From an uncultured Bacilli bacterium (GTDB taxonomy: Bacteria > Bacillota_I > Bacilli_A > RF39 > UBA660): DNA of 64,000 bases. The notes under the pieces were generated by a model. The model made no database searches, was not told the DNA's origin, and saw nothing but the letters and a program-made list of their open reading frames with translations. The stretch lies in NCBI GenBank assembly GCA_934102355.1, contig CAKOSO010000001.1, forward strand, positions 96,863-160,862, in the 5' to 3' direction. Each line of letters begins with the position of its first letter. Positions within the stretch are counted from its first letter, which is position 1. The position numbers and the translations under genes are program-made. Positions 4,378 to 57,930 of the stretch are shown here, piece by piece.

Positions 4378-4378
4378 T

Positions 4379-4618
4379 TTATTTCACTCCTTTTTCTTTA
4401 CTTGATACATCAAGCACATAACTTTCTTTTATGAAATCTTTTTCATCAATTATTGGTGATATTACTTTAGTAGCTTTAACAATTGTATCAATATCTATCA
4501 CATCATCGCTATCTAATACAATACTTAATGTCTTATTTTCATAAGTTATATCATCAACCCATAAACCCATATCTTGTAATGGTTTTTCAATAAACTTCTT
4601 AATCTCTTTCATAATCAC
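4379..4618 (-). CDS. rimP: ribosome maturation factor RimP, short form (N-terminal domain only)
   Basis: 79 aa aligning to the RimP N-domain. It sits directly upstream of nusA. The C-terminal domain of canonical ~150 aa RimP is absent. Confidence 0.65.
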   Translation of the reverse strand: MIMKEIKKFIEKPLQDMGLWVDDITYENKTLSIVLDSDDVIDIDTIVKATKVISPIIDEKDFIKESYVLDVSSKEKGVK

Positions 4619-4798
4619 TCCCTAAAAAATATAAAAAGTGGGTATTCCCACTTCGTTGCTACAAGTATTATACCATTATATATTTTATTTGTAAAACTTT
4701 TTTTAATCTTTAATGTAAAGAATTTTATTTTTATTTTCTATAAATTTACACAAAGTATTTTTCATGTTATAATTTTTGATAGAATTGGTGGTTATTAT

Positions 4799-5488
4799 AT
4801 GAAAAAAATTATAAACATTTTATTATTTGTTGCACTATTTTTTACAGAAACATTTTTAAATTCAATTATATTTTACTCATTATATAGATTAGGAATAAAT
4901 ATTGATTCAATATATTTAAGACTTATAATTACTGTTATAAGTTGGATAGTATTTATGGTATTTATATTCCTTATATATCGTAAAAGTTTAATTGAAGAAT
5001 TTAAACTATACAAAAATAATTTTAAAAATTTCTTTATTTTTGGACTTAAAATATGGTTTATAGGTCTTACTATGATGGTTGTATCTAATATATTAATATC
5101 ATTTGTATATAGTAATAATTCCGCTAACGAAGAAGTAGTTCAATCCTACTTAGTTAAATATCCAATATATACTACTATTTCAACTCTTATATATGCTCCA
5201 TTTGTAGAAGAAATCATTTTTAGAAAAAGTTTAAAAGGTATTTTCGATAATAAAGCGTTATATATACTAATATCCGGTTTAATATTTGGACTTTGTCATG
5301 TAGTTGCAGGAATTGATAATACTATGGAACTATTATACTTAATACCTTACGGTATAATGGGTGCAAGTTTTGCTTATATTTATAGTAAGACTGATAGTAT
5401 TTTCGTATCAATGTCCATGCACTTTATACATAACTTAATTACACTTATAATATCTACTCTTCCTTATATAATTGGAGGTTTAGTATGA
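4799..5488 (+). CDS. CPBP family intramembrane metalloprotease (CAAX protease/Abi-like)
   Basis: Multi-TM protein with the CPBP motifs EEIIFRKSL (EExxxR), FGLCH (FxxxH) and HFIHN (HxxxN). Confidence 0.75.
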   Translation: MKKIINILLFVALFFTETFLNSIIFYSLYRLGINIDSIYLRLIITVISWIVFMVFIFLIYRKSLIEEFKLYKNNFKNFFIFGLKIWFIGLTMMVVSNILISFVYSNNSANEEVVQSYLVKYPIYTTISTLIYAPFVEEIIFRKSLKGIFDNKALYILISGLIFGLCHVVAGIDNTMELLYLIPYGIMGASFAYIYSKTDSIFVSMSMHFIHNLITLIISTLPYIIGGLV

Positions 5489-6372
5489 AAAAGACAAGAA
5501 CCAAAAAATTAGAAGAACAAGAAAAAGTATTAAAAAAAGAAAAAAGAAAGAAAGGTTTAAAAAAAATGCTTATTATACTATTAATAATTATTGTTTTAGG
5601 TTCTCTATATATGTTTTTTGTTGAACCGAAACTACTTGTTATTCATGAAAACAACTTAATAACAGATAAAATAGATAACTCTCTTCATGGACTTAAAATC
5701 GTACAATTTAGTGATGTTCATTTTGGTACTTCTGTTAATGAAAAAAATATAAAAAAGTTAGTTAAAAAAATCAATAAAACTAAACCAGATATAGTAATAT
5801 TTAACGGTGATTTAACAAATAATAATTTTACAAAAGAACAAGTTGATATTATAACTAGTGCTTTTAAAGAAATAACTGCTACACTAGGTAAATATGCTGT
5901 ATATGGTAATCATGACTATATGTATGGTTTACTATCTTACAATAATATAATGGAAGATTCAGGATTTAAAATTTTAAAAAATGAATATGATCTTGTATAT
6001 AAAGATTCCTCTACTCCAATTCTAATATATGGAGTTGATGATGTCTTAGAAGGTACACCAGATATGAGTAAATTAAACGAATATCAAAATAATGTATATA
6101 AAATAGTAGTTGTACATGAACCAGACTATATAGATAACTTTGATGTAAATAGTGTTGACCTAGTACTTTCAGGTCACTCACATAACGGTCAAGTAAATAT
6201 TCCACTATTAAAAAAATTAGTTCTTCCAAAAGGATCAAAAAATTATTATGAACCACATTATCTAATCAATAATACAGAAGTCTATATAAGTAATGGATGT
6301 GGATGCGGATTAATTTCAATGAGGTTATTTAACTTACCATCAATTAACTTATTTAGAATAATTAAAAAGTAG
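5485..6372 (+). CDS. metallophosphoesterase (calcineurin-like, YkuE-like), membrane-anchored
   Basis: N-terminal TM helix. Phosphoesterase motifs DVHFG, GDLTNN, GNHDY and GHSH. Confidence 0.75.
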   Translation: MKKTRTKKLEEQEKVLKKEKRKKGLKKMLIILLIIIVLGSLYMFFVEPKLLVIHENNLITDKIDNSLHGLKIVQFSDVHFGTSVNEKNIKKLVKKINKTKPDIVIFNGDLTNNNFTKEQVDIITSAFKEITATLGKYAVYGNHDYMYGLLSYNNIMEDSGFKILKNEYDLVYKDSSTPILIYGVDDVLEGTPDMSKLNEYQNNVYKIVVVHEPDYIDNFDVNSVDLVLSGHSHNGQVNIPLLKKLVLPKGSKNYYEPHYLINNTEVYISNGCGCGLISMRLFNLPSINLFRIIKK

Positions 6373-6390
6373 AATTCTTAATTCTACTTT

Positions 6391-7668
6391 TTAGTTTCTA
6401 TACTCAAATTCATAATCAAGTATTTTTATAATATCACCTTGTTTGGCCCCCATTTTTTCTAATTCATCATCTACTCCAAATTTAGTAAGCTTTTTAGCAA
6501 ATCTTAAGATTCCTTCTTCTGTTGTAAACTTAGTCATTCTAAATAATTTCTCAATTTGATCACCCTTTACAACGTACACATCATTTTCTTTTGTAATTGT
6601 AAATGGTTTTTCTTTTTTATACTTAAATAATACATAATCTACTGTATCATCTTCTACTAAAGGTTCTTCTTTAATTCCATCTAATAAATCTGCTAAATAA
6701 GTTAAAATATCATTAAAATCAGTACCATTTTGTGCACTTACTGGGAATATTTTTATATCTTCATTATTTAGTTTTTTTCTGAATATTTTTAGATTTTCTT
6801 CTGCTTGTGACATATCCATTTTATTAGCGATTATTACTTGCTTCTTTGTAGATAATTTTTCACTAAAGTTCTTTAACTCATTACAAATAATTTCATAATC
6901 ATTAAAAGGATCTCTGCCTTCAAAACCAGACATATCTATTACATGTAATATTACTCTTGTTCTTTCAATATGTTTTAAAAATTTATCTCCTAATCCTTCC
7001 CCTTTAGATGCTCCTTCAATTAAACCAGGAAGATCAGCCATTACAAAACTTCTTCCATCTTTAGTTTTGCATACACCTAAATTTGGATTTAATGTTGTAA
7101 AGTGATATGCAGCAATTTTAGGGGTACTTCTTGATACTTTTGATAAGAATGTACTCTTACCAACACTTGGGAAACCTACAAGTCCAACATCAGCAAGTAA
7201 TTTTAATTCAACTTTTAGATTTCTTTCTTCTCCAGGTTCACCTTTTTCAGAAAAGTTTGGTGCAGTATTAAATCTTGTTTTAAATGCTGTATTTCCTCTT
7301 CCCCCACGTCCACCATATGCAACAACGAACCTATCTTTATGATTCTTTAAATCACATATTAATACATTTGTAGTAGCATCAGTTACAACTGTTCCAGGAG
7401 GAACTTTAATTACTATATCTTTAGCGTTTTTACCATTCTTGTTTTTACCTTCACCATGTTCTCCACGTTCACCCTTAATTATTTTGTTAAAACGTAAATC
7501 AATTAATGTTCTAAGTCCTTCATCAACCTCAAAGATAATATCTGAACCTTTACCACCATTACCTCCAAAAGGACCACCCATTTCAACGTATTTTTCACGT
7601 CTAAAGGCTGTACATCCATCTCCACCATTACCAGCAATGACTTTAATGTATACTTCATCTAAAAACAT
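6391..7668 (-). CDS. obg: GTPase Obg
   Basis: N-terminal MFLDEVYIKVIAGNGGDGCTAFRREK glycine-rich Obg fold, a GTPase domain (GFPSVGKST, DLPGLIEGA) and a C-terminal TGS-like domain. Confidence 0.95.
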   Translation of the reverse strand: MFLDEVYIKVIAGNGGDGCTAFRREKYVEMGGPFGGNGGKGSDIIFEVDEGLRTLIDLRFNKIIKGERGEHGEGKNKNGKNAKDIVIKVPPGTVVTDATTNVLICDLKNHKDRFVVAYGGRGGRGNTAFKTRFNTAPNFSEKGEPGEERNLKVELKLLADVGLVGFPSVGKSTFLSKVSRSTPKIAAYHFTTLNPNLGVCKTKDGRSFVMADLPGLIEGASKGEGLGDKFLKHIERTRVILHVIDMSGFEGRDPFNDYEIICNELKNFSEKLSTKKQVIIANKMDMSQAEENLKIFRKKLNNEDIKIFPVSAQNGTDFNDILTYLADLLDGIKEEPLVEDDTVDYVLFKYKKEKPFTITKENDVYVVKGDQIEKLFRMTKFTTEEGILRFAKKLTKFGVDDELEKMGAKQGDIIKILDYEFEYRN

Positions 7669-7684
7669 AATATCACCTCTTTTT

Positions 7685-8938
7685 TTATAAGTTCAAAAAT
7701 TTTTCTTCTATTATAATATCATATATTTTATTTTTTTCTAGATTTTTATCTATCTTTAAATATAAATAATTTGAAGTATGTCCATATGAATATGTACCAT
7801 CATTTTCTTCAATTAATACTTTTTCTTTCTTACCAACACACCCTAATTTATATTCATGTTCCATTTTATTAGATAACTCAATTAACTTTTTATTTCTTTT
7901 TTTCTTTACTTCATTACTTAAATGATTTGGTATCGTACAAGCTCTTGTATTTTCCCTCCTTGAATAAGGGAAAGCATGCACTTTAGAAAAATTTACCTTT
8001 TCAATAAAACTTAATGAATCATAAAAGTCTTCTTCAGTTTCATCAGGGAACCCTACTATTACATCAGTTGTAACACTTATATTTCCTCTTATACTTCTTA
8101 TTTTTTCTATAGTTTTATAAAAAAAATCAGTATCATACTTTCTGTTCATTAATTTTAAAGTTTTGTCACAGCCACTTTGTAATGGTATATGTAAATGATT
8201 ACATATCTTTTCATTTTTTAAAAGTTCAAAGAACTTATCATCTAATTCAGTTATTTCAATTGAAGAAATTCTTATTCTTTCTAAACCATCAATTTCTAAT
8301 ATTTCCTCTAAAAGATTAGAAAATGTAGTATTAATATCCTTTCCATAATTACCAGTATGAATTCCTGTTAATACAATTTCTTTATAACCTTTTTTTACAA
8401 GATTGCTTATTTCCTCTAATACAAGATCTTTATTCTTTGATCTAGAATGTCCTCTTACAAAAGGAATAACACAATAACTGCAATAATTATCACAACCATC
8501 TTGAATCTTTACAAACGCTCTTGTGTGTTCATTAAAATCGTTAATTTCCATATTATCAAAAGGACATTTCATAATATTTTCTCTAACATCTAATTGCTTT
8601 TTGTCCTTAAAATATTCATCTATCAAGCTTACAATCTTTGATTTATTATGATTTCCTATTATTATGTCAACATCTTTAAAATCATAATTTTTATTGCTCT
8701 CTACAAAACATCCACAAACTACCAAACAAGCATCTTTATTTAAACTTCTTGCATGATGAATCATCTTTCTTGATTTAGCATCACTATTATTTGTAACTGT
8801 ACATGTATTAATTACATATATATCATTTTTATTATTAAAGTCACCAATTTCATAACCAGCTTCTTTTAATTTACTTGTTATATACTCACTCTCATAGATG
8901 TTTACTTTACACCCCAAAGTGCATAATCCAACCTTCAT
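7685..8938 (-). CDS. mtaB: tRNA methylthiotransferase MtaB (radical SAM, MiaB-like)
   Basis: N-terminal MTTase domain, radical SAM CxxxCxxC (CDNYCSYC) and a TRAM-like C-terminus. Confidence 0.8.
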   Translation of the reverse strand: MKVGLCTLGCKVNIYESEYITSKLKEAGYEIGDFNNKNDIYVINTCTVTNNSDAKSRKMIHHARSLNKDACLVVCGCFVESNKNYDFKDVDIIIGNHNKSKIVSLIDEYFKDKKQLDVRENIMKCPFDNMEINDFNEHTRAFVKIQDGCDNYCSYCVIPFVRGHSRSKNKDLVLEEISNLVKKGYKEIVLTGIHTGNYGKDINTTFSNLLEEILEIDGLERIRISSIEITELDDKFFELLKNEKICNHLHIPLQSGCDKTLKLMNRKYDTDFFYKTIEKIRSIRGNISVTTDVIVGFPDETEEDFYDSLSFIEKVNFSKVHAFPYSRRENTRACTIPNHLSNEVKKKRNKKLIELSNKMEHEYKLGCVGKKEKVLIEENDGTYSYGHTSNYLYLKIDKNLEKNKIYDIIIEEKFLNL

Positions 8939-44806: not shown

Positions 44807-45478
44807 TTATTTTTTATACTCAAGTCTTATTGATTTTGCTAAAGAAACAATAAAAGATAGCGAAGGTGTCCCACTTCTATATATTGTAGTTGATTTTCCA
44901 CCATTTATAATTGGTTCTAATTTTAAATTTTTTCCCTTTATAAGACAAGCTATTCCAGGTATACCTTTAAAAAGTAATGAATCAAAACATACTAAATCAA
45001 TACCATTTAAATCTTTAAAATAATTATCTTCTGTTAAAATTAAAAAATATACACACCCATATGATCTACATAATTTCATTAAATAATCATCATACTTATT
45101 AGTACATACTATTAAAGTATTATCATCAACTAATTTATTTACATCACTTTCTATATTACTAGTTTCTCTTATTTCTAAATTTTTATTAAATTTTTTAGAA
45201 ATTTCATCTAATGAAGAATTAATATTTTTTTCTATTACTATATTTTTATTTTTTAAATTATGATTTTCTAAATATCCTAAAACACCTAAAGTTATTGATT
45301 CAGATAAATCACTAGTATAAATTATCTCTTTATCATTTAAAGATAAAATATCAAGAATTTGTTTAGAAGCTGCAGTTTCTAATTTTTTAGAAAGTGTACC
45401 TAGACCATGCAACGAATTAACATTTCCAATATATTTTAATGATGTATTTTTAAATGTTTCTAAAACTTCTTTTCTCAT
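44807..45478 (-). CDS. truncated cysteine desulfurase-like paralog (PLP domain only, lacks catalytic Cys loop)
   Basis: Aligns to IscS residues ~25-265. It has GNVNSLH, IYTSD, a degenerate SxxK region (DSLLFKGIPG) and GGKSTTIYRSGT. The C-terminal SSGSAC domain is absent. Overlaps the upstream gene stop by 4 nt. Confidence 0.5.
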   Translation of the reverse strand: MRKEVLETFKNTSLKYIGNVNSLHGLGTLSKKLETAASKQILDILSLNDKEIIYTSDLSESITLGVLGYLENHNLKNKNIVIEKNINSSLDEISKKFNKNLEIRETSNIESDVNKLVDDNTLIVCTNKYDDYLMKLCRSYGCVYFLILTEDNYFKDLNGIDLVCFDSLLFKGIPGIACLIKGKNLKLEPIINGGKSTTIYRSGTPSLSFIVSLAKSIRLEYKK

Positions 45479-46545
45479 TTTTTATCACCTTTTAAATTTA
45501 ATTTATTATAACATTCCATTATTTTAGATGTAACATAATGAATCTCATCACTATTATTATATATTGAAAGACTTATCCTCAAACTTGTTTTAGCTAATTC
45601 AAGATTATTAGTTAATGATAAAACAGATAAAGAATAATCATTATTTGTAGAACAAGCACTCTTTGTAGATACATATATTTCATATTGTTCTAATGCATGC
45701 AAAAAAGTTTCTGGTTTTATACTATTTACACTAAAATTAACTATATATGGTATACAACTACTATTTGAATTAATTGTAATTCCACCAAAATCTTTTAAAT
45801 CATTTATAAACTCTTCTTTTAATTTTTCAACATAAATATAATTTTCTTTTATTTTTTTTATTGCATCAGAAACTGTATAATTAAATGATTTAATAAGTCT
45901 TAAATTATATGTTCTTTCACCAAAAATTATTTTATCTAACTCTATATTTTTATTTTTTAATAACACACCTATTCCCTTTAAACCAAATATTTTATGAGAA
46001 TTAAAAGTTACTAAATCTATATTATTTAAATCAATATTAACCTTACCTATACTTTGTGTCATATCACAATGAAAAATAACACTTTCATATTCTTTTAATA
46101 ATTCTTTTATCTTATCAATCGGTTGTAATAAACCAGTCTCACTATTAACTGAACAAATGCTTACTAAAACAGTATCACGAGTTATTAAATCTTTTAATGA
46201 TTCAATATCTACTATACCATTATTTAATTTAACATAGTCAATTATAAAACCAAATTTTTTCATATATAGTAATGTTTCATTAACAGATGAATGTTCCAAA
46301 GTTGTAGTTATAATATGTTTATTTTGATTCTTATATTTATTTAATACTCCTTTAATAGCAAGATTATTTGATTCAGTTGAGCCACTTGTATATATAACAT
46401 CTAAATTAGTATTTAAAACTTTCTTTAAATTTTCTTTTTCTAAACTTAATGTATCATTATCACAAATCTTATCTGCATCTCTTAAAAATATATTCATTGA
46501 TTCATCACTTGGTTTAGTTGTTGCAGAAAAATCAAAGTAATACAT
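45475..46545 (-). CDS. cysteine desulfurase (NifS/IscS family), divergent
   Basis: FDFSATT N-terminus, TSGSTESNNLAIKG, PLP-Lys region NSHKIFGLKGIG and catalytic-loop STKSACS. Start set at MYYFDFS with RBS GAAGGTGA. Confidence 0.75.
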   Translation of the reverse strand: MYYFDFSATTKPSDESMNIFLRDADKICDNDTLSLEKENLKKVLNTNLDVIYTSGSTESNNLAIKGVLNKYKNQNKHIITTTLEHSSVNETLLYMKKFGFIIDYVKLNNGIVDIESLKDLITRDTVLVSICSVNSETGLLQPIDKIKELLKEYESVIFHCDMTQSIGKVNIDLNNIDLVTFNSHKIFGLKGIGVLLKNKNIELDKIIFGERTYNLRLIKSFNYTVSDAIKKIKENYIYVEKLKEEFINDLKDFGGITINSNSSCIPYIVNFSVNSIKPETFLHALEQYEIYVSTKSACSTNNDYSLSVLSLTNNLELAKTSLRISLSIYNNSDEIHYVTSKIMECYNKLNLKGDKK

Positions 46546-46606
46546 AATTTCACCTTCTTTTGCATACAATAGTAACATAAAATTTTAAAAAAATAAATAA
46601 AAAGTG

Positions 46607-46665: not shown

Positions 46666-46739
46666 GCAGATGTAGTTTAATGGTAGAACCTCAGCCTTCC
46701 AAGCTGACTACGTGGGTTCGATTCCCATCATCTGCTCCA
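46666..46739 (+). tRNA. tRNA-Gly (anticodon UCC)
   Basis: GCAGATGTAGTTTAATGGTAGAACCTCAGCCTTCCAAGCTGACTACGTGGGTTCGATTCCCATCATCTGCTCCA. Anticodon loop CTTCCAA. CCA is encoded. Confidence 0.9.
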
Positions 46740-46750
46740 TTTGAAGACAA

Positions 46751-46781
46751 CTTACGGACTAAAGTTCGTAAGTTTTTATTT
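46751..46781 (+). terminator. rho-independent terminator after tRNA-Gly
   Basis: CTTACGGACTAAAGTTCGTAAG hairpin followed by TTTTTATTTT. Confidence 0.55.
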
Positions 46782-46837
46782 TATAAAAATATAATGTAGA
46801 AATAGTTAGTTTTTTTGTTATGTAAAGGAGCCTTTTT

Positions 46838-47293: not shown

Positions 47294-48064
47294 CTAAATC
47301 TTTCCTATAAACATTTCTGTATGAAAATCAAAACGAACGATGTCATCTTTTTTATATTTATTAAAAATAGTTATAATACCATTTATAAACTCATCATAAT
47401 ACTCACTATCTTCTTTTGGAGCATACGATAATGATTTAGATAACCCTATTAGCATATCTATAGTATAATCCTTAGAATGGATAAATGTATAAGTCTTATA
47501 TTCACTATTCTTAAAAAAATTTTTACGATCATCAACATTTTTATGTTGATATGTTTTACCAGTAAGTTTAGTATTCCAAGAGCTTATATATTTGAAGTAT
47601 TCCTTACTAAATTCATTATTTTCATCTTCCCAGTCATTCCAAACTATTGCAAAATATCCATTAGATTTTAATATTTTATTTACTTCTTGTTTTAATTTTT
47701 GTTTATCAAACCAATGAAAGCTTTGAACTGCAAATACTATATCAACTGAATTTTCAGGCAATTCTGTTGATTCTGCACTTTTATTAATATAAACAATATT
47801 ATCACAATCATTGCAATATTCTTTTCCTTTGTTAATCATATCAATATTTGGTTCAACATAATAAATTTGTTTACAATACGAACTTGCTATTTTAGAAAAC
47901 TTTCCAGTTCCTGCTCCTAACTCAACTATAATTTTATTTTTAATATTGTATTCTTTTGATAAAAAATCAAAAAGTTCAATTGGATATGTAGGTCTATATT
48001 TTGAATAGTCTTCTTGTTTTCCAAAATAAAATTTTTTACTATCTTTTTCCACATTATATTTCAT
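47294..48064 (-). CDS. class I SAM-dependent methyltransferase
   Basis: SAM-binding motif VELGAGTGKFS and a Methyltransf_11-like core. Confidence 0.7.
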   Translation of the reverse strand: MKYNVEKDSKKFYFGKQEDYSKYRPTYPIELFDFLSKEYNIKNKIIVELGAGTGKFSKIASSYCKQIYYVEPNIDMINKGKEYCNDCDNIVYINKSAESTELPENSVDIVFAVQSFHWFDKQKLKQEVNKILKSNGYFAIVWNDWEDENNEFSKEYFKYISSWNTKLTGKTYQHKNVDDRKNFFKNSEYKTYTFIHSKDYTIDMLIGLSKSLSYAPKEDSEYYDEFINGIITIFNKYKKDDIVRFDFHTEMFIGKI

Positions 48065-48118: not shown

Positions 48119-48268
48119 TTGAAATTTAATAAGAATTTATATATAATATTTTTAGAAAGAGAGCGTTATGATTCGTAAGTTGTAGCTTAACCGCTCCAAA
48201 TTGATAGGAAACTCGGAAATTAACTTCTGAGAATAATAAGTGCTAACTAGAAATAGTTAGTTTTTTTT
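48119..48268 (+). ncRNA. small-RNA-like element E1: sigma-A promoter (TTGAAA-17-TATAAT) + ~110-nt conserved RNA + intrinsic terminator
   Basis: -35 at 48119-48124, -10 at 48142-48147. Transcript begins AGAAAGAGAGCG and contains GTAAGTTGTAGCTTAACCGCTCCA. Terminator GCTAACTAGAAATAGTTAG + T8 at 48242-48268. A paralogous copy lies at 49131-49248. Confidence 0.4.
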
Positions 48269-48334
48269 AATATAAATTTTATTATATAAAAAGATTAGTT
48301 GTATTTCAAACTAATTCAATCAACAAATTGTAAT

Positions 48335-48838
48335 TTATCTTTTAACTTTTTTAATAAATAGGAAGTAAACGATTATAGGTATTATTATTAAATCTGGTAT
48401 AGTAAATGTTCTAACTAGTATATAATTTCCAATAATTGTTACTAAAATAAGTCCTATTGATATAAATTTGGCAAATAATCCTTCTTCTTTTGTTTTCCAA
48501 GTAAAATAAGCAAATAAAGGCGATAAACAAGAAAATATTGTCCAACCTTTGATAAAATTCCAGCTATATACTGCATTTGTTAATTCTGCTGTTACATAGT
48601 ATGAAATTAGCATTCCTATACAAAATGGAAATATATTTATCATTGCTTTTTTCCTTGTATCACTATATATCGAAATCAATATTCCTAATAGTACCCATAT
48701 TGGTAAATCTGAAAACATATATCCAAGTGTCATCATAAATAAATTGCCAACAAAAAGTATATCCAATAATTTGCTTATTATTCCTAAAATAGCACCTATA
48801 AAAAATAATGAAATAGGATTTAATATATATTTCTTCAT
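48335..48838 (-). CDS. hypothetical polytopic membrane protein (167 aa)
   Basis: 5 predicted TM helices. No assignable family. Confidence 0.5.
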   Translation of the reverse strand: MKKYILNPISLFFIGAILGIISKLLDILFVGNLFMMTLGYMFSDLPIWVLLGILISIYSDTRKKAMINIFPFCIGMLISYYVTAELTNAVYSWNFIKGWTIFSCLSPLFAYFTWKTKEEGLFAKFISIGLILVTIIGNYILVRTFTIPDLIIIPIIVYFLFIKKVKR

Positions 48839-48860
48839 AAATTATCTCACTTTCAAATTA

Positions 48861-49028
48861 CTATTTTTCTTTCTTATCAAACGAAATTAAACAAGCAATA
48901 ATAGAAAATAAAGTTCCAAATAAAATCATGGCAAATCTTCCTATACCATCAATTTCAGTAATAATTCCATAATCTAAAATTCCTATTCCTAAAATCATTA
49001 AAACAATTTTAAATATATTCTTTTTCAT
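48861..49028 (-). CDS. small membrane protein (55 aa, 2 TM); not in ORF track
   Basis: RBS AAAGGAGGACATT before the ATG. Product MKKNIFKIVLMILGIGILDYGIITEIDGIGRFAMILFGTLFSIIACLISFDKKEK. Confidence 0.45.
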   Translation of the reverse strand: MKKNIFKIVLMILGIGILDYGIITEIDGIGRFAMILFGTLFSIIACLISFDKKEK

Positions 49029-49736: not shown

Positions 49737-52628
49737 TTAAATTACCTTTTTTAAAGTTTTTCCATTTTTTAAAGAAATCGAGCTTATTTCGTTATTAGCT
49801 CTTTCATCTGATGAATTATTAAATGTTTCTATATCTCCAGTTATATAACTTATAACGTACCAATCATCATTACAATAAACTTCTTTTAAATCTTCCACAT
49901 CTATTACTTTATAGGATTCTAAAGTATTATTTCTTTCTGCTTTTACATATCTTAAAGCATTAACTTTCTTATTCATAATTTTTACATAATCCTCTTCATA
50001 AGATTCATCTTTTGAATAATACATAATATCTTTTCTTTCATCTTGATATGTCAAATAACTTTGACCTAAATTAAATACACCATTTCCTCTAATTAAATAT
50101 TGAACATTTTTTGAATCTGAATATCCAACTTTTTCAATCGGTTGAGGCAAAACATCAACAAATTTTCTATTACTTCCTAATCTACTTCCAAAATCTTTAT
50201 ATTCCAGATCACAATCTTTTGCTATTAAACAAGGATATTGTTCAATACCTTTTATTTCTTTGTCAAAGTTAGTAAATCCAATTGTAACATTTTTAATACA
50301 TTTTTCTATTCCTTCTGATTGATATGAAGTTTTTATTACTTCATCCGCAGCTTGTAAATATACATCAAAGAAATCTACTGAGTTTATTTTTTTAGAAATT
50401 TCAATATTATCTAAACATAATAAATCCCCATTTCTCCATATCCAACTATGTGCTAAAATTTCATTACCCTTTTTAACTACCAATATTCTACCATTATTAC
50501 TTGTTAAAGAATGCTTTAAGCACGAATAACCGTTACCCAATACAGTAAAACAACAATCTGTTTTATTGCCTATGGCTAATGCCTCCATATCATCTAACCT
50601 TAATATTTCATAAGAATATTCATTTTTAGTACCTTTAATTCTTGGTATTGTAGAACTTACTCTAGCTAACATTTGATCATGTAATAATAAAGTTTCATTT
50701 ACATTACTATTACTGCATCCAATAAATTTAAATAATCCCTCTAAACGATAATATTTAGATGGTAATGATATTTCATCACTTTTTAAAAAATCTACTATTA
50801 TTTTTAATGATTTATCTTTATCATTCATGGCAATTACTTTCCATTCATTAAATATTCTTGGAAAATATTTATATAAATCATTATCTTTGTTAGATAACAT
50901 TTCTTTCATTTTAGAATAATTTTTATCACTAAATAATAAATTCATTAACTTAGTATTTAATATTGGGTTACTTTGTTCATCTAATTTAACGCTTTTAATA
51001 TCAACATTACCTATTAAATGTTCTAATACAGGTAATGTATCATCTATTTCTAATAAAGCTCTTGCATTATTAAAACCCACCATTAACATTAATTTTAAAA
51101 TTAACTGTTTATAAATTCTAAAATGCCAATCACTTTTTTCGAACTTTTTATATAATTGTTTATGTTGTTTAACATTATAATTTTCTAATTGTTCTACTGT
51201 AAAATCTTTTACTTTAAAATCAATTTGACCTAATCTATTAAATATAGTTATTTCTTCAATACTTGATAATTGATATAGTATCGTAATTGATTTACCCATA
51301 ACAATTCTATAAAATAATTTTTCTATTTCTTTAAAATTGTTATTTTCAATATTATTTATAATATTTTGATTTTTTAAAAATAATATAAAATTTGATAAAT
51401 GTTGTTTATAGATTTTATCATTTTTTGAAATAGCATTATTTTGCAACATTTCTTTAAGTTCACTTAAATTATTTAAATATTTCTCTGAAAAAATTGAAGT
51501 TGTTACATCTATTTCTTCTAATATACCTTTATTCTTAATATTATTTCTATACTTTGTTTCAATATATCTTAATGCAGATACATCTCCCCTATGTAAATAA
51601 GAAGTATAAAACTTTGTATCAAATAATTCTTCTATATTATCTATTTCAAAAGTATCTAATATATTTTTTAAATCATCATTAATTGTTTCAATTTTAGAGC
51701 ACAATTTAATCCAATCATTTAAAGTTAATGACTTAAAAACTTCTTTATTATTACTATACAAATCTACAATAATTCTAGGACTTATTTCAGATAATATCTT
51801 TTTAATATCTTGTTTCTTAATTATATTTTTAAAAAATTTTGGTATTAAAATTTCTTTCTTGATGCTATAAGTTTCACTTAAATATTTTTCTAAATCATAT
51901 TCATCAATATTGGCGAAAGCAAGATTTAATTTAACATAATGTTTATTTACAAACTCTTTATATACTTCTGTATTATCTATATATTTTAAAAATGATAAAA
52001 GTTGTCTGGGATTAAATGTATTGATTTTATCATTAAACACATCTAAAAAATAGTTCATAAATTCTTCATTATACACTTTTTGTTGTTGAAAAACATTATT
52101 CATTTCATTTGTATTAGCATTTTCATAACAACATCTATTATGAAAATACACTCCATGAATAAATTTTCTATTTTCTATTTCAATTAAATCAGTATAAAAT
52201 TGATTATAAAAAGAATAATAATCTTCATGAGTAAATCCGTGAAATAAATTTTCAGGATTTTGATTTATAACTCTTTTAAATATTTCTACGTCGATATTCT
52301 TTAATTCTTTTAAAACATTAAAAGAGAAAAAATAAGATAAAGATTTAGGCTCCATCATTGTATATAAAAATATATCTTTATCATGTTCTTTTATATATTT
52401 AATATTTTCCTTTAAAAACGCTATTTGTCTTTCTTCTGGTAATTTACTAATAATATAATAAATAGTAAGAGGCGTCATATCATTAATAGCTTTATCACCA
52501 TTCTTAATATATTCATAACATTCTTTAAGTGCTTTTTCTTCATTTTTCTTACCAACATTTAATGAAAGTGATATAAGATTTGTTTGTTTCAATAAATCTT
52601 TCATTTGTTCATCAGTTAATTTTGGCAT
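49737..52628 (-). CDS. large hypothetical protein (963 aa), last gene of 4-gene operon; possible C-terminal Cys/His peptidase-like region
   Basis: No nucleotide-binding motif. The C-terminal third has GNKTDCCFTVLGNGYSC...AHSWIWRNGD (candidate Cys-His-Asp arrangement). Followed by a minus-strand terminator (AATGATGAT...ATCATCATT + T7). Confidence 0.6.
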   Translation of the reverse strand: MPKLTDEQMKDLLKQTNLISLSLNVGKKNEEKALKECYEYIKNGDKAINDMTPLTIYYIISKLPEERQIAFLKENIKYIKEHDKDIFLYTMMEPKSLSYFFSFNVLKELKNIDVEIFKRVINQNPENLFHGFTHEDYYSFYNQFYTDLIEIENRKFIHGVYFHNRCCYENANTNEMNNVFQQQKVYNEEFMNYFLDVFNDKINTFNPRQLLSFLKYIDNTEVYKEFVNKHYVKLNLAFANIDEYDLEKYLSETYSIKKEILIPKFFKNIIKKQDIKKILSEISPRIIVDLYSNNKEVFKSLTLNDWIKLCSKIETINDDLKNILDTFEIDNIEELFDTKFYTSYLHRGDVSALRYIETKYRNNIKNKGILEEIDVTTSIFSEKYLNNLSELKEMLQNNAISKNDKIYKQHLSNFILFLKNQNIINNIENNNFKEIEKLFYRIVMGKSITILYQLSSIEEITIFNRLGQIDFKVKDFTVEQLENYNVKQHKQLYKKFEKSDWHFRIYKQLILKLMLMVGFNNARALLEIDDTLPVLEHLIGNVDIKSVKLDEQSNPILNTKLMNLLFSDKNYSKMKEMLSNKDNDLYKYFPRIFNEWKVIAMNDKDKSLKIIVDFLKSDEISLPSKYYRLEGLFKFIGCSNSNVNETLLLHDQMLARVSSTIPRIKGTKNEYSYEILRLDDMEALAIGNKTDCCFTVLGNGYSCLKHSLTSNNGRILVVKKGNEILAHSWIWRNGDLLCLDNIEISKKINSVDFFDVYLQAADEVIKTSYQSEGIEKCIKNVTIGFTNFDKEIKGIEQYPCLIAKDCDLEYKDFGSRLGSNRKFVDVLPQPIEKVGYSDSKNVQYLIRGNGVFNLGQSYLTYQDERKDIMYYSKDESYEEDYVKIMNKKVNALRYVKAERNNTLESYKVIDVEDLKEVYCNDDWYVISYITGDIETFNNSSDERANNEISSISLKNGKTLKKVI

Positions 52629-52648
52629 GATATTATCCTCTTTCTTTT

Positions 52649-54235
52649 TTATTTTTTAAATTTATTAAAATCTATTTTTAATACTCTTTGAACTGGTTTA
52701 GATATACTTGTATCTAATTTTCTTAATTCCGCTTTTGCTTGTTCTCTTGTAAATTCATATATTCTATCACAATATTCAAATCCTTCAGCAAAATGTTCTG
52801 CTGTAATAAATTCACTATCATAAACTTTTGCAAATGCAAACGCCTTGTCAACAATAGATATTGCTAAATCTGGGTTATTAACGCTATCATTATATACTCT
52901 ATGCCTTTTTTCAGTAGCATTTAATATAATATTTACTATTTGAGTTCTTATATTTTCATTTTCAAAAGATATTCCACTTTTTATATAATAATCCCCAATT
53001 ACCTTATCCACTATTTGATATAAAATATCTTCATTAGGTTCTTTAACAATAATTTTTTCAAATCTTCTTTTTAAAGCATCATCACTAAAGAATTCTTGAT
53101 ATTCTTTTTCAGTTGTTGTTCCAATTACTTTTAAGTTAGATCTATCTATATAATGTTTTAACATAGATGACATGTCGTTATTTTTACCTACAGTTGAACC
53201 AAGACCATATATTGTATGAATTTCATCTATAAATACTATTACATCTAATCTTTCACATAGCTTCATTAATTTAGTCACGTTATCTTCAAACATTCCAACG
53301 TATTTACAGCCTGCAACTATATCACTTGGATTAACCTCCAAAATTATTTTTCCTTGTAAAAAGTTTGACACTTGTCCAGTTTTAATTCTATAAGCAAGTT
53401 CATCTACTATAGCAGTTTTACCAACACCTGATTCACCAACTATTAATGGTCTCTTTTTATCTTGAGCTAAAGTAATTATAAGATTTTTTAGTTCTTTTCC
53501 CCTTCCAATAGTCGGTGCAACTACATAATTCTTTCTATTTAATATTTTCCCATATTTTTCAAGTTCTGAAATATCTCTATCAGATAATGTTACAGTTACT
53601 GTAGAAGCAGGATTTTTTTGTTTTACTGATACATTATTAGCAACAGCAGGTTTAGCTTCTTTAAGTTGATTATTTTGTTTAACCTTAGAATATCTTTCTT
53701 CAAATTTTTTCTTAAAACTTTCTATTTGTTTTTTAGAATATTGCTTTTGAAAAATCATTGCTTCCAATAAATTTCTGCCTTCTGAACAAACCTTAGTACA
53801 ATCATATCCATTAGAACATAATAAATCATAAATTCCTTCAACTTCGCCTAAATAATCATCACTATATATTGCAGTATGCATAATAGTGTCTTTATCACTA
53901 TCAACATGATTAACATTTAAATTATATTTTAATGCTTCAGTAATAATATTTAAAATAAATTCTTCACTATATCCAGCATATAAAGCAGTTTGAATAAAAT
54001 TATAATTATAATCTGCTTCTAAATTTGGACTTAATCCAAATTTTAATAATGATTTAATTGCAAGGAAACATTTCGCTTCATCATACTTATCATCTACTAA
54101 AATATGCAAAATAGATTGATTATCTTCATCTATATAATCTATACCTCCAAATACACTCTTAATTTTTTTTACATTAGAATGCATATTATCTGTCATTTTT
54201 GATAATAAATTTTTTATATTATTTTCGCTTAACAT
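52649..54235 (-). CDS. ankyrin-repeat + ClpA/ClpB D1-like AAA+ ATPase (single AAA+ module)
   Basis: N-terminal degenerate ANK repeats (NQSILHILV...LLKFGLSPNL; DTIMHTAIYS...LLCSNGYDC). Walker A GESGVGKTAIVDELAYRI is near-identical to ClpA/B D1. Walker B VIVFIDEIH, sensor VIGTTT, Arg finger ALKRRFEKI. Start at MLSENN with RBS GGGAGGAA. Confidence 0.65.
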   Translation of the reverse strand: MLSENNIKNLLSKMTDNMHSNVKKIKSVFGGIDYIDEDNQSILHILVDDKYDEAKCFLAIKSLLKFGLSPNLEADYNYNFIQTALYAGYSEEFILNIITEALKYNLNVNHVDSDKDTIMHTAIYSDDYLGEVEGIYDLLCSNGYDCTKVCSEGRNLLEAMIFQKQYSKKQIESFKKKFEERYSKVKQNNQLKEAKPAVANNVSVKQKNPASTVTVTLSDRDISELEKYGKILNRKNYVVAPTIGRGKELKNLIITLAQDKKRPLIVGESGVGKTAIVDELAYRIKTGQVSNFLQGKIILEVNPSDIVAGCKYVGMFEDNVTKLMKLCERLDVIVFIDEIHTIYGLGSTVGKNNDMSSMLKHYIDRSNLKVIGTTTEKEYQEFFSDDALKRRFEKIIVKEPNEDILYQIVDKVIGDYYIKSGISFENENIRTQIVNIILNATEKRHRVYNDSVNNPDLAISIVDKAFAFAKVYDSEFITAEHFAEGFEYCDRIYEFTREQAKAELRKLDTSISKPVQRVLKIDFNKFKK

Positions 54236-54567
54236 ACAGAATTCCTCCCTAAATAGTTGGTGGTTATTATAACATAATATCAAAATCAATACAATATCTA
54301 AGTATGTAAAATTTCCACTTAGAATTCACAAAATAAGGTAATTTTTAATTTCTATTAATTAGAAATGTTAAAATTAAAAAGGTATTATGAATATAGTAAT
54401 AGAAACATTGATATAATATAAAACATTTAAAAGATCAACTTATTCAAGCTGATCTTTTAAACTTTATTTATTTTCTTCTCGTTCAGAATAATACTCCGGT
54501 ACATCCAGATATAGCCATACCCACAACTTCATTACCATTATGATATTCATATTGAACATTATCAGCT

Positions 54568-56034
54568 CTATTTATTCTTTTGTTCATAAACACGTTTTAA
54601 TGTTCTAGCTAATCTAACCTGTTCAATATCTTTTTCAAATTTTCCCACAACACTTTTAGGATCACATTCAAGATGTTCTTTTTCATCAAAAATCTTAAGT
54701 AAAAGTTTTTCTTCAGTAGTCATTTTACGATACCAACAAGACTCATACGCTATTTTACAAAGATCATCAACTCCAAAAGGATATTTATCTGGATTAACAT
54801 AATACTGTTGTTTTCTAACATTATATAGCACCTTTAATAAAACATCTGGTGCTATAGGTGAATTAAAATATTTTACTATTTGAGCTAATTTTTGATTAAA
54901 CTCTTCATTATCTAATTCAAACGTTTTTTTACTATTAATTAATGCAATTCTAAATAATAAAGAATTACTGCCAGTTAAACCTGCCATATAATTTATTGAA
55001 TCTATAAATTCTTTCGGTAAACCATTAAGTCCAACTTCACCAACTAGCTTTTCAAATTCTTGAACCATATCTTTTGAATAATATGGAAATTTAAGTTCGA
55101 ATAAATTACGCCCACCAATTTTATCCATTTTTGCTTTTGTAACAGCAAACCATCTATATGAATATAAGAAATTATTATCTGATTCACTTTTCTTATTATC
55201 ATAAGTAGGATCAAAATAGTAAACACCCTTAACACCATATTTTTCATCATCAACAAAAATTACATTTCTTGCATGTCCATTTTTATTATTATTAGAGTTG
55301 ATTAAAAATACCGTATTACATTTAATTCCAAGTCTTTTAATCAATGTAGTAAATATTCTAGCATACCCAAGACACACTATTTTATCACTTAATAATGATG
55401 ATGTTAAATCTCTTGAATTCCTTTTATCTTCACCATCATCTACTTCTGTATAAACTTTATCTCTTACTATATCATAAATATACATAATTTTTTCAAGAGG
55501 TGAAAAATTAAATTTTTCTACCTCATTAATCATTTTATCAATTGCACTAATAGTATCTTTATATTCCTTAAATGTAATTAAACTATCATTATCATATAAT
55601 GAGAAATATAAATTTGAAGTATTGTAATCAAATAATTCATTTATTTCATCCATTTTTTCCAAACTCAAATCAAAAGGAACATTAAAAATTAATCTTTTTG
55701 TACTTAAAACTGGATTTTTCTTTACAAAATCTGCTATTTTCTTATAATCAAAGTATCCAAATGTAATATCATTAATACTTTTAATATATTGTAATCTATT
55801 ATTCTTAAACTTAGTTAAAAAATCTTTCCACTCTTCATCATATAAACGTGAATCAATATCAATATCTATATTCTCTTCTAAATCATAAGGATTTGAAATA
55901 ATATCATAAAAATCATCATCTAACAAAGTATTAATGCGTACCTCATAGTCATGATATATGTCACCCTTAAACACATTCGCACGGGAAAGATCATCATCTT
56001 CTTCAAGTGGATAAAATGATAGTAATCCTTTCAT
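54568..56034 (-). CDS. transglutaminase-like cysteine protease core domain protein (488 aa)
   Basis: The central region KIVCLGYARIFTTLIKRLGIKCNTVFLINSNNNKNGHARNVIFVDDEKYGVKGVYYFDPT matches the TGase-like Cys-His-Asp core (CxGxA ... GIPxR ... HaWxEVy ... DPT). Confidence 0.55.
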   Translation of the reverse strand: MKGLLSFYPLEEDDDLSRANVFKGDIYHDYEVRINTLLDDDFYDIISNPYDLEENIDIDIDSRLYDEEWKDFLTKFKNNRLQYIKSINDITFGYFDYKKIADFVKKNPVLSTKRLIFNVPFDLSLEKMDEINELFDYNTSNLYFSLYDNDSLITFKEYKDTISAIDKMINEVEKFNFSPLEKIMYIYDIVRDKVYTEVDDGEDKRNSRDLTSSLLSDKIVCLGYARIFTTLIKRLGIKCNTVFLINSNNNKNGHARNVIFVDDEKYGVKGVYYFDPTYDNKKSESDNNFLYSYRWFAVTKAKMDKIGGRNLFELKFPYYSKDMVQEFEKLVGEVGLNGLPKEFIDSINYMAGLTGSNSLLFRIALINSKKTFELDNEEFNQKLAQIVKYFNSPIAPDVLLKVLYNVRKQQYYVNPDKYPFGVDDLCKIAYESCWYRKMTTEEKLLLKIFDEKEHLECDPKSVVGKFEKDIEQVRLARTLKRVYEQKNK

Positions 56035-56081
56035 AAAAACACCTCTTTTAATTAATAATTAAGCAATGAAAACAATTCATA

Positions 56082-57344
56082 TTATTTATTTCTTTTAATA
56101 CTTGGAACTAATATTCTAGGCTTTACTTTTTTAAAATTTGATACTTGTTCCTTTTGTCTATCAACACTTTCTCTAGTTATCTCACCATTTAAAAATTTTG
56201 CTCTTGCTAACACATAAGACTTATTAATAATAGGAATTCCATTAATTTTTAAATAATCTAAAACTAATGTTTTATCTTCATCTGTAATTTCTATACCATT
56301 TATAGTAGTTCTAGTCTGATAAAGAGCTTTTAGATTTAAAGGTTCAAACGCATCTATTAAAGACAACTTATTATCGTTAACATATGAAACAATTGTACTC
56401 ATATCTTTAGGATTATTCCTTTTCATAAAACTTGCTAATGCTGAACCAAAACTTTTATCATTCTTAAATGGTACTCTTTTAATAAATTCTAATAATTCAA
56501 ATTTTGTACCATCTGATAAAACACCAGTATTTATTCCATTTGCTAAATCAGATATGGTAGCAGCATTTTTAAAACAATTTTCTTTTCTATTTAACTCTCT
56601 CTTTGATAAATATTCTTTATATAAATCTACATCTAATTCTTCAATAACACTAGCACAATATGCTAATATTTCTCTATCAATTCCTAACTCATCTAAGAAT
56701 TCCTTCTTGTAACTACTAGGAGTATTAACATAAGCACTTATTACAAACTTAGCATAATCATAAACTTGAAGATAATTCTCTATACTTAAAACATATTTAA
56801 CGTTACTAACTATATCCTTATCTTCATATTCTTTAAATTTAGCATATAAAAAATCAAAATTATCAAGTGCTTCCCTTGCTAAATCTAACCTAGCATCATT
56901 TTTGCCATATTTACTTAATAAAGCATATGATCTTTTAAATTCTTTTGAGCCTTTAAATAAAGTTAACAATTTTTCTACCTTTTTATAATCATTATCATTA
57001 GAATTAATAATATCAAAAACTAAATTAATTTTTTTAACTCTTAATGCTATTTCTTCCAAAGTACATCTATAAGAATTTTTCATAATCTTAAAATAGCCCT
57101 TTTCTTCATATTCTTTATAAATTTTCAATAATTCCTTAAGTTTTTCTACTTCTTTTAAACCTAAAGTATTATAAAGTTCAATATTATTCTTTAAACTAGA
57201 ATCATTACAAAAAGAATATAAGTTTATAGCTTTTGCATCTTCATCTAAATCCGAATTAATCAAATCAAACATATGATTAATATCATCCATAGTAATTAAA
57301 GCACCTTTACTACCATAGTTTAATTTTGTTCTACCTTTCATCAT
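56082..57344 (-). CDS. hypothetical protein (420 aa), first gene of 4-gene operon
   Basis: Start set at MMKGRTKLNYG with RBS AGGAGGGG 8 nt upstream. The longest ORF starts at 57404. Predicted mostly alpha-helical, no known motif. Confidence 0.55.
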   Translation of the reverse strand: MMKGRTKLNYGSKGALITMDDINHMFDLINSDLDEDAKAINLYSFCNDSSLKNNIELYNTLGLKEVEKLKELLKIYKEYEEKGYFKIMKNSYRCTLEEIALRVKKINLVFDIINSNDNDYKKVEKLLTLFKGSKEFKRSYALLSKYGKNDARLDLAREALDNFDFLYAKFKEYEDKDIVSNVKYVLSIENYLQVYDYAKFVISAYVNTPSSYKKEFLDELGIDREILAYCASVIEELDVDLYKEYLSKRELNRKENCFKNAATISDLANGINTGVLSDGTKFELLEFIKRVPFKNDKSFGSALASFMKRNNPKDMSTIVSYVNDNKLSLIDAFEPLNLKALYQTRTTINGIEITDEDKTLVLDYLKINGIPIINKSYVLARAKFLNGEITRESVDRQKEQVSNFKKVKPRILVPSIKRNK

Positions 57345-57439
57345 TTTTAAAACCCCTCCTACTATGTAATAGTTATAACAAGATTTATATATAACATAAG
57401 TCATTATTTTAAAACTATATCATCTGATAACTGCGACAT

Positions 57440-57468
57440 ATTATAGCATTTTTAACCAATTTTGTCAA
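57440..57468 (-). promoter_or_regulatory. perfect consensus sigma-A promoter driving the 4-gene operon (-35 TTGACA, 17-nt spacer, extended -10 TGcTATAAT)
   Basis: Minus-strand reading TTGACAaaattggttaaaaatgcTATAAT. -35 at 57463-57468, -10 at 57440-57445, about 95 nt upstream of the first start codon. Confidence 0.5.
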
Positions 57469-57504
57469 TTTTATGTAAACTTTATCAAATAAAAACAAGA
57501 TCTG

Positions 57505-57930
57505 TTATGATCTTGTTCTACTATTTCCTTTTTTGTTTTCTGTTACCGTTGCTTTTAATTTAGCTTCTATTTTATATAATCTTGAATCTATTTCCTCATC
57601 TTTATCTTTTAATTCATTTGAATTATGCATTTTAAGTGATTTAGAGAATTCTTTATATATATTAATTATTTGAACCCATTCATCTAAACTATACCTTCTA
57701 TGTTTTATAGCATTAGTAATAGTTCTTGTATCTATATCATATTCAACGATATCACCAATTATCAATGATGCACTACCAATATAATCTGATGATGAAAACG
57801 TAGTTAATGATTTATTTTTATCTAAAGTAAGTATTGTACTCCTTTTAACCTTTTTTACATATACCATTCTAGTCTTATCTAAAACTGGTTCAGAATATTC
57901 TATATCCACTACTATTCCTACTTTTTTCAT
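57505..57930 (-). CDS. hypothetical protein (141 aa)
   Basis: Start at MKKVGIVVDIEY with RBS AGGAGG + 7 nt. Followed on the minus strand by the terminator ACAAGATCATAACAGATCTTGT + TTTTTATTT at ~57494-57520. Confidence 0.5.
   Translation of the reverse strand: MKKVGIVVDIEYSEPVLDKTRMVYVKKVKRSTILTLDKNKSLTTFSSSDYIGSASLIIGDIVEYDIDTRTITNAIKHRRYSLDEWVQIINIYKEFSKSLKMHNSNELKDKDEEIDSRLYKIEAKLKATVTENKKGNSRTRS

Follow-up and report, generated by a model that had tools for sequence, protein, structure and literature searches.

The mitochondrial disaggregase Skd3 (human CLPB) acts independently of Hsp70 and needs both its ankyrin repeats (ANK) and its nucleotide-binding domain (NBD) in cis, the latter being NBD2-like (PMC7343390). 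Dodola, a two-gene anti-phage system, consists of DolA, which carries DUF6414, and the ClpB-like protein DolB (PMC11514479). Here, we report on two adjacent genes, C and D, that bear comparison with both: C is predicted to join ankyrin repeats to a single Clp-type ATPase ring, and D to end in a divergent GNAT-fold domain. The genes lie in a 64,000-nucleotide stretch of DNA from an uncultured Bacilli bacterium (contig CAKOSO010000001.1, positions 96,863-160,862; G+C ~25%), referred to below as the window. Two further genes on the same strand, A and B, precede them, and an earlier reading of the window from its letters alone (the sequence-only reading) had taken all four for a single operon. We find that the region is made up of two independent two-gene units, A-B and C-D, that are neighbours by happenstance in the window genome. 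C-D is the conserved unit: a discrete, 4.6-kb cassette whose genomic surroundings are unrelated among the ~20 species of uncultured, low-GC gut Bacilli that carry it.

The genes and transcription signals of the region are as follows (window coordinates).

57492-57519: hairpin terminator of an upstream 168-aa gene, preceding the A-B promoter
57440-57468, minus strand: promoter of the A-B unit, consensus sigma-70 TTGACA-17-TGcTATAAT (12/12 match, with TG)
56082-57344, minus strand: gene A, 420 aa from an ATG behind an AGGAGG site, or 440 aa from an upstream ATG
54568-56034, minus strand: gene B, 488 aa
54425-54462, minus strand: intrinsic terminator that closes the A-B unit, with a perfect 17-bp hairpin and a U-rich tail (ΔG -20.1 kcal/mol)
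54266-54294, minus strand: promoter of the C-D cassette, with a weak -35 box (TTGTAT), a 17-nt spacer and an extended -10 box (TGtTATAAT)
52649-54235, minus strand: gene C, 528 aa
49737-52628, minus strand: gene D, 963 aa
49683-49739, minus strand: probable, weak terminator of C-D, an AT-rich hairpin and U-tract directly 3' of the D stop codon

The open reading frame listing confirms four consecutive minus-strand genes of 420, 488, 528 and 963 aa. The perfect consensus promoter ahead of them is equally real: TTGACA-17-TGcTATAAT at 57468-57440 is the sole 12/12 match in the region, where promoter-like sites overall are not enriched (100 found, 95 expected from shuffles). The single operon is contradicted by the 278-bp spacer between B and C, which holds both a hairpin and a second promoter. 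The hairpin (54462-54425) has a z score of -5.4, and none of 200 shuffles folds as well. The extended -10 box TGtTATAAT, at 54274-54266, falls in a block that is kept in all orthologous C-D cassettes (upstream alignment of 14 loci, including the window). The 20 nt that separate C from D include an AAGAGG ribosome-binding site. As for the intrinsic terminator claimed at the operon end, a hairpin with a U-tract does follow D, yet it is only weak and AT-rich (ΔG -14.8, z -2.0). The resulting anatomy is (i) unit 1, 57468-54425, consisting of the consensus promoter, A, B and a strong terminator, and (ii) unit 2, 54294-49683, consisting of its own extended -10 promoter, C, D and a weak terminator.

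The same division is seen in other genomes. A scan with the D alignment, taking one genome per GTDB species, gave 30 loci, 18 of which have an assessable upstream side. An intact C-like gene lies directly upstream of D in 17 of these 18, and the remaining genome (L016) carries a C pseudogene; A and B are found in none of the D-scan loci. A reverse search of metagenome contigs with the C ankyrin profile gave nine loci, and D or a D remnant lies directly downstream of C in all seven that contain enough sequence. Since adjacency is seen from both the D and the C searches, the linkage is too strict to be put down to chance. Across the 18 genomes and nine metagenome loci, neither A nor B occurs within 8-10 kb of C-D. 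The sequence-only reading had itself made its four-gene unit depend on co-occurrence in other genomes, and the claim fails because A and B do not co-occur with C-D elsewhere.

DNA comparisons place sharp borders around the cassette. Homology between the window and 20 other loci (blastn) is limited to ~49.7-54.3 kb—that is, the promoter, C, D and the terminator—with 66-89% identity over 4.2-4.6 kb; the match stops at both ends and the flanks are unrelated. The upstream blastn boundaries lie at 54248-54302, similarity between species begins at the -10 box, and downstream similarity is gone no more than ~60 nt past the D stop codon. A and B, for their part, are adjacent in L043 and L044 (61% and 48% identity), beside a gene for a 680-aa large serine recombinase, and an A homologue is solitary in L045. 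Two contexts of A homologues lack C and D nearby, and three contexts of B homologues lack A, C and D. A-B is a pair of its own, which travels apart from C-D. In this anatomy alone (the two separate units, the C-D pair and the domain identities) we have high confidence.

The C-D pairing has also been duplicated and has decayed. One locus (L020, 2440-12880) contains two D paralogues in tandem, each with its own ankyrin-bearing partner: a 919-aa protein with three ankyrin modules and an AAA+ module in the first case, and a 409-aa, ankyrin-only protein in the second. The latter pair points to a functional link between ankyrin repeats and D, and the ankyrin module, duplicated in this locus, can pair with D where the ATPase is missing. 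In L016, the AAA+ part of the C pseudogene is deleted and D is intact; in L052 and L049, D is truncated and C is intact. Decay in both directions is as expected for dispensable accessory genes, and the same observations argue against a toxin-antitoxin or addiction pair. Just upstream of the decayed C of L016 lies a gene (3867-8810) for a 1,647-aa protein, one more uncharacterised giant in the lineage, with approximately eleven '...GY(V/I)P(S/T)...' helical repeats, a centre rich in Cys (HGCCCSY...KYCC) and an HD domain at its C-terminus (Pfam, E 5e-5).

Gene C has the following predicted parts.

aa ~40-165, 53741-54118, minus strand: ~3 ankyrin repeats (profile matches)
aa 181-210: variable linker
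aa ~222-528: AAA+ module of the ClpA/ClpB NBD1 type

C is predicted to be a single-ring Clp/Hsp100 ATPase of the NBD1 (D1) type, in which three ankyrin repeats replace the usual Clp N-domain. The AAA+ module matches TIGR02639 (ClpA) at E 4e-50, aligned to positions 128-413 of 734, and ClpB of PDB entry 1qvr at E 3e-36 (residues 129-393). Profiles of ClpA, ClpB, ClpV, ClpK and ClpG match as well, always over the first AAA+ module alone (for ClpB, 132-396 of 853). The module contains a Walker A (GESGVGKT), pore loop (AGCKYVG), Walker B (VFIDEIH), sensor-1 (GTTT) and Arg finger (KRRF), and the Walker motifs, pore-loop Y/F, sensor-1 and Arg finger are kept in 15 of 16 C orthologues. In L017, the C gene (66-1613) has a Walker B E-to-A change (FIDAIH) and a Gly in place of the first Arg of the RRF finger; it is otherwise intact and followed by D, and looks like a naturally ATPase-dead variant. 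The ankyrin assignment is weak from the single sequence (Pfam E 0.008-0.011). A profile from 15 members of the family matches designed ankyrin repeat proteins (DARPins) and naturally occurring ankyrin proteins (E 3e-17 to 2e-9), and the C paralogues of L020 pass the Pfam ankyrin thresholds (Ank_4, E 1.9e-17). The ankyrin domain is conserved on a par with the ATPase (81-89%).

Both halves of the proposed fusion of ankyrin repeats to a D1-type AAA+ module are supported by these matches (family profile; TIGR02639, 1qvr), and the domains said to be missing are indeed missing. All matches are to D1 only, with C ending 58 aa past the aligned region, so that there is no D2; Pfam finds no Clp_N, the N-terminus being ankyrin; and the 1qvr alignment leaves no sequence for the coiled-coil insertion of an M-domain. 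As NBD2/D2, which carries the ClpP-docking loop in ClpA, is lacking, C has no site for such a loop. C therefore resembles class I Clp/Hsp100 proteins (ClpA, ClpB, ClpC) in its NBD1 with Walker A/B, KYxG-type pore loop, sensor-1 and Arg finger, and differs from them in having one ring, no Clp_N, M-domain or NBD2, and a fixed partner gene. Ankyrin repeats plus NBD1 alone would be a previously undescribed form of Clp/Hsp100. The closest architectural parallel is Skd3, which is eukaryotic and has no operon partner. Like C, mitochondrial Skd3/CLPB combines N-terminal ankyrin repeats with a single Hsp100-type NBD (PMC7343390); the ring of C is NBD1-like, whereas that of Skd3 is NBD2-like with a C-terminal domain. 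Because the rings differ, the likeness is one of convergent architecture and not of orthology. A solitary 297-aa AAA+ protein, 36% identical to the NBD1 of C (aa 223-469) and devoid of ankyrin repeats, is encoded in L045 (12809-13702), where its neighbours are housekeeping genes (ftsY, ylxM-like, RNase J). The C ATPase module may derive from this chromosomal protein, or the latter may be a separate, minimal Clp-D1 protein.

Gene D consists of two predicted regions.

aa 1-655, 50664-52628, minus strand: N-terminal, all-helical region; in the model, aa 30-470 are confident and aa 470-655 poorly defined
aa 656-963, 49740-50663, minus strand: C-terminal domain, with a GNAT-fold core (aa ~656-870) and a small beta/alpha tail (aa 871-963)

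Orthologues are 52-71% identical to the window protein over the N-terminal two thirds, against 75-90% over the C-terminal domain. The GNAT core is the most conserved segment (87-90%), and the N-terminal 420 aa and last 90 aa are the most variable; the tail (aa 871-963) is missing in a subgroup of 877-891 aa. A full-length model of D, of moderate quality (predicted local distance difference test score, pLDDT, 68), has a helical N-terminal and an alpha/beta C-terminal region. The C-terminal domain was also modelled by itself from a 27-sequence alignment (pLDDT 93.3; predicted template modelling score, pTM, 0.89). The top Foldseek matches of the D models are GNAT proteins, the fold appearing in two independent models, with aminoglycoside acetyltransferases and MccE among the matches; no PDB structure matched the helical part better than these. 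Strand order fits the GNAT topology beta1-alpha1-alpha2-beta2-4-alpha3-beta5-alpha4-beta6. We conclude from the models that the C-terminal domain of D is, in all likelihood, a divergent GNAT fold.

Conservation in the 27-sequence superfamily alignment is centred on R656, P662, Y673, C693, R714, R732, E743 and Y861, all invariant, and on the near-invariant C692, S728, W729, W731, C738 and D740. The invariant E743 sits on beta4, which in many GNATs bears the general base. The alignment contains no conserved Q/RxxGxG/A motif, the pyrophosphate-binding element of GNATs between beta4 and alpha3, there being no conserved Gly after the DNIE strand (beta4). Since this Gly-rich CoA-binding motif is missing, the donor may be an acyl-CoA that is bound in an unusual manner, or an aminoacyl-tRNA as in the Fem and L/F-transferases. 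Sequence profiles (single sequences and two family profiles) matched nothing in Pfam, NCBIfam, PHROGs, PADLOC or PDB, and for the 27 members no GNAT family was matched in Pfam at E<=1 or, with the profile, in PDB at E<=10. D hence differs from known GNATs, Fem-type aminoacyl transferases included, in lacking sequence similarity to those of Pfam and PDB, in its family-specific signature (TDCC...NGR...SWxWRN...DNIE), and in being embedded in proteins of 860-1,900 aa.

Two other readings of the D C-terminus were discarded. The Cys/His-rich region had been suggested to be a second peptidase-like domain; the fold is GNAT-like instead, and the His of the supposed Cys-His-Asp triad (His727) is not conserved in a distant subfamily. 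An R-S-E ADP-ribosyltransferase, as might be read from NGR/SW/NIE, was rejected on the grounds that three successive strands of a beta-meander carry these motifs and that all fold matches are GNAT.

An exhaustive profile search assigns 1,135 clusters to the D superfamily at E<=1e-3, with similarity shared mainly over D residues ~580-790; many members are 1,100-1,900 aa long and have no Pfam domain whatsoever. The C-terminal domain of D would accordingly represent a new GNAT-fold sequence family without a Pfam model, with a minimum of 1,135 clusters at 50% identity. Giving the family a name would bring annotation to a considerable part of gut "dark matter", including many giant proteins of human and animal gut bacteria. 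One metagenome contig (ERZ28019037 k141_169839; L041, 1-19669) carries five tandem giant genes of 1,872, 1,305, 1,222, 1,615 and 1,693 aa with no Pfam domain. Four of the five match the D-type GNAT-like core (tblastn), and the fifth is cut by the end of the locus. Relatives, P0325 and P0343 among them, carry repeated (Y/H)PELF(L/I)DxxAPxELKxxFY motifs.

The clearest case of mobility is L046, an IMG/VR contig, in which the gene order is DNA methylase, TnpV, large serine recombinase, C-D, Mob_Pre relaxase, large serine recombinase, tyrosine integrase and ImmA/helix-turn-helix. Tn4451-type integrative mobilisable elements use many integration sites with low site specificity (PMC5704250). L046 resembles the Tn4451/Tn4453 family in that TnpV, a large serine recombinase and Mob_Pre (MobV) flank the cargo, and differs in that the cargo is C-D rather than a cat gene (PMC5704250). 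In at least this one case, C-D appears to be the cargo of a Tn4451-like mobilisable element. Recombinase, Mob/relaxase or integrase genes, or their remnants, also adjoin D in L008, L009, L014 and L015, with remnants of the Tn4451-type gene set in the last three, and mobile-DNA genes or remnants lie beside a distant D-like gene in L022. A phage or plasmid origin was rejected: with the D domain as tblastn query, neither 50,697 phage records nor 72,556 plasmid records gave a match.

tRNA genes adjoin D in L011 and L016 and lie at a distance of 2.6-3 kb from it in L013 and in the window, where the tRNA-Gly gene reported near the operon does sit 3 kb downstream of the cassette (46666-46739). It is at most a possible attachment site: no repeat of the tRNA 3' end occurs within 46-64 kb, and few other loci have a tRNA near D. 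A stretch of the window comprising the last bases of the tRNA-Gly gene and a hairpin terminator (46734-46789) is 90% identical to 58 nt of L046 (5742-5799), located between a serine recombinase gene and C; the two may share a terminator element, or the stretch may be what is left of an attachment site. Farther from C-D, the CAG:451-like group (L026-L030) carries a D-like gene without C among LlaJI-type restriction-modification genes (McrB/LlaJI), other DNA methylases, GmrSD, HNH and AAA_13, and the D-like gene P0275 has a housekeeping neighbourhood. The defence-island signal of distant D-like genes is suggestive only.

We tentatively propose that C-D is an accessory, mobile module pairing a GNAT-type acyltransferase with a dedicated unfoldase, probably with a role in conflict; as a whole statement, mechanism included, we rate it at a little below an even chance. 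According to this proposal, (i) D would act as an acyl- or aminoacyl-transferase, its helical part picking out a macromolecular target, most likely a protein, (ii) C would form a hexamer, (iii) the ankyrin repeats of C would dock on D or on the D substrate, and (iv) C would thread a polypeptide through its pore, and so either unfold or extract the modified target or switch D on. The outcome would be remodelling or inactivation and not ClpP-dependent degradation, because C is without an NBD2. The role would be one in inter-genomic conflict (defence against phage or other mobile DNA, or competition) instead of housekeeping; a conflict role is judged the most probable because the cassette is accessory, mobile and freely decaying. 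The AAA+ motifs and pore-loop aromatic of C are kept, and D has an invariant Glu on beta4 as well as invariant Cys, Arg and Tyr, all of which support an enzymatic reading. In ClpA, moreover, it is D1 that drives hexamer assembly.

Several points weigh against this proposal. The mechanism is inferred from domain logic and analogy. Isolated ClpB NBD1 hexamerises poorly, so that ring formation by C is an assumption. Lacking the canonical acetyl-CoA motif, the GNAT-like domain of D could use another donor or be non-catalytic, and the motif losses of C in L017 suggest that one lineage or more can do without ATPase activity. Among the sampled cases, most members of the D superfamily lack a C partner, which would make C a one-clade add-on, outside the core mechanism of D. 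In the window itself, tblastn finds no recombinase or relaxase adjacent to the cassette, and the C-D flanks in the window clade are mostly metabolic, housekeeping or unknown (PPDK, DcuC, Ffh, ABC transporters). Lastly, PADLOC-DB 2.0.0 has no match for A, B or D, and only marginal, P-loop-level matches for C (mad8, E 1.1e-3). C-D may be a conflict or defence system, which the mobile-element context makes somewhat more likely.

The most far-reaching version of the proposal is a mobile "tag-and-unfold" immunity or competition module: a giant GNAT-fold enzyme would acylate or aminoacylate its targets, the ankyrin-Clp unfoldase would extract them without ClpP, and the D domain would constitute a major effector family. 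We think it unlikely that all of this will hold. If it did, the D-type GNAT-like domain, with more than 1,000 clusters including tandem paralogues of 1,200-1,900 aa, would be a major uncharacterised effector family of gut Bacilli.

Among the rival explanations, the one that survives best is that C is a chaperone devoted to the assembly or activation of D alone, comparable to CbbQ-CbbO, NorQ-NorD or Rubisco activase. In that case, the ankyrin repeats would hold the helical region of D, and the AAA+ ring would remodel D—for example, by freeing an autoinhibitory N-terminal part—with no threading of third-party polypeptides. Strict adjacency from both search sides and the ankyrin-only partner of D in L020 fit this well, as does an ankyrin domain that is as conserved as the ATPase (81-89%), which is what a constant partner rather than variable targets would bring about. 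The chaperone is hard to reconcile with D-like proteins that function without C in most lineages sampled, with the intact D beside a C pseudogene in L016, and with a conserved pore-loop aromatic, which suggests true polypeptide threading. We consider it rather unlikely.

It is improbable that C is a stand-alone disaggregase, a convergent counterpart of Skd3/CLPB that serves general proteostasis in reduced-genome gut Bacilli and is merely co-transcribed with an unrelated D. An accessory, patchy, mobile and decaying gene is unlike a core proteostasis gene, the linkage to D exceeds what chance would give, and the NBD is NBD1-type where that of Skd3 is NBD2-type; on the other side stand the shared architecture of ANK plus one ring (PMC7343390) and AAA+ motifs that are all intact. 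Were C nevertheless to act alone, ankyrin-plus-single-ring machines would have arisen twice, from NBD1 in C and from NBD2 in Skd3.

We give still less credence to C-D as a resistance or immunity determinant, in which the GNAT domain of D would acylate a small molecule (an antibiotic, bacteriocin or microcin-like toxin) with C as an accessory, by analogy with AAC, MccE and the catP of Tn4451. The fold matches of D to aminoglycoside acetyltransferases and MccE invite this idea, as does the position of the cassette in L046, where a Tn4451-like element classically carries a resistance gene (PMC5704250). Known resistance GNATs, however, are single-domain enzymes of 150-200 aa with a CoA motif, whereas D has 963 aa, a 650-aa helical part and no such motif, and an unfoldase partner would be superfluous for a small-molecule enzyme. 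Finally, the tempting p97-PNGase-like reading of all four genes as one remodelling or degradation system, with the Clp-like unfoldase feeding the transglutaminase-fold enzyme, can be set aside with near certainty: shared strand and tight spacing in the window genome and the correct domain assignments of C and B do not outweigh a terminator and promoter between B and C, homology blocks that stop at the cassette borders, and the absence of A-B with C-D from all ~30 other loci, and the real conserved unit, C-D, has been isolated in its place.

The A-B unit has its own character. A has no recognisable domain in Pfam, NCBIfam, PHROGs or PADLOC, its family profile has no significant match in PDB or Pfam, and its family is small (55 homologues, 33-63% identity). 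The transglutaminase-like Cys-His-Asp core described in the 488-aa B protein is borne out: PF01841 (Transglut_core) matches at E 4e-7 (30.7 bits, gathering cut-off 23) over ~aa 178-300, and all 17 family members compared retain C221, H254 and D275. B has 130 homologues, with no relatives in IMG/VR. No N-terminal signal peptide was evident by eye (no predictor was run), and B is best described as a predicted cytoplasmic, transglutaminase-like (papain-fold) protein. It is partially similar to the MAG6410 family of mycoplasma transglutaminase-related lipoproteins (E 6e-12), yet its score of 44.8 bits is far under the 450-bit cut-off of that NCBIfam family. Within the PF01841 superfamily, B is distinguished by its length (~490 aa, with large N- and C-terminal regions that have no assigned domain) and by its partners, gene A in some genomes and FemAB-gene neighbours in others. 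The FemAB family comprises aminoacyl transferases of the peptidoglycan interpeptide bridge. B homologues adjoin FemAB-family genes in two of three other contexts (L032, 9590-12072; L036, 9546-10808), which hints at a role of the B family in cell-wall precursors.

Further signs of DNA exchange, or of gene disruption, lie downstream of the cassette in the window. Two perfect copies of a 20-nt direct repeat, TAGAAATAGTTAGTTTTTTT, at 46797-46816 and 48248-48267, enclose a 1.45-kb segment in which a 76-aa open reading frame and the gene for a class I methyltransferase (47294-48064) are located. Position 46797 is exactly where a 93%-identical match to L009 begins, and the second repeat copy lies within a match to L007 (81%); the repeats may delimit a further small mobile cassette beside tRNA-Gly. 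The adjacent gene for a 167-aa membrane protein (48316-48873; weak DUF6518) is 99.1% identical at the DNA level to L010 (17481-18039). The C-D cassettes of the window and L010 are 83.6% identical and their remaining flanks unrelated, and the 167-aa gene points to a very recent exchange between species. At 44807-46578, two open reading frames (223 and 367 aa) overlap by 4 nt and both match Pfam Aminotran_5; the 223-aa product covers profile positions 13-144 and may stem from a truncated duplicate or a split gene.

Set against known systems, the claim that no described system has this architecture stands: no match at the level of a system came from PADLOC, Pfam, NCBIfam or PHROGs. Because it is carried on mobilisable elements, C-D is a candidate novel system of defence or competition. 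C-D resembles Dodola in that an effector-type protein is encoded together with a Clp-type ATPase (PMC11514479), and differs from it in having no sequence relation and far larger proteins, both Dodola genes together spanning ~2 kb. Pfam finds no DUF6414 (DolA) in D; the presence of Dodola models in the PADLOC copy used is unconfirmed. McsB-ClpC, Aat/Bpt-ClpS-ClpAP and PafA-Mpa, likewise unrelated to C-D in sequence, follow the same enzyme-plus-unfoldase logic. Beside these systems, C-D takes its place as a real, conserved and previously undescribed combination of known folds.

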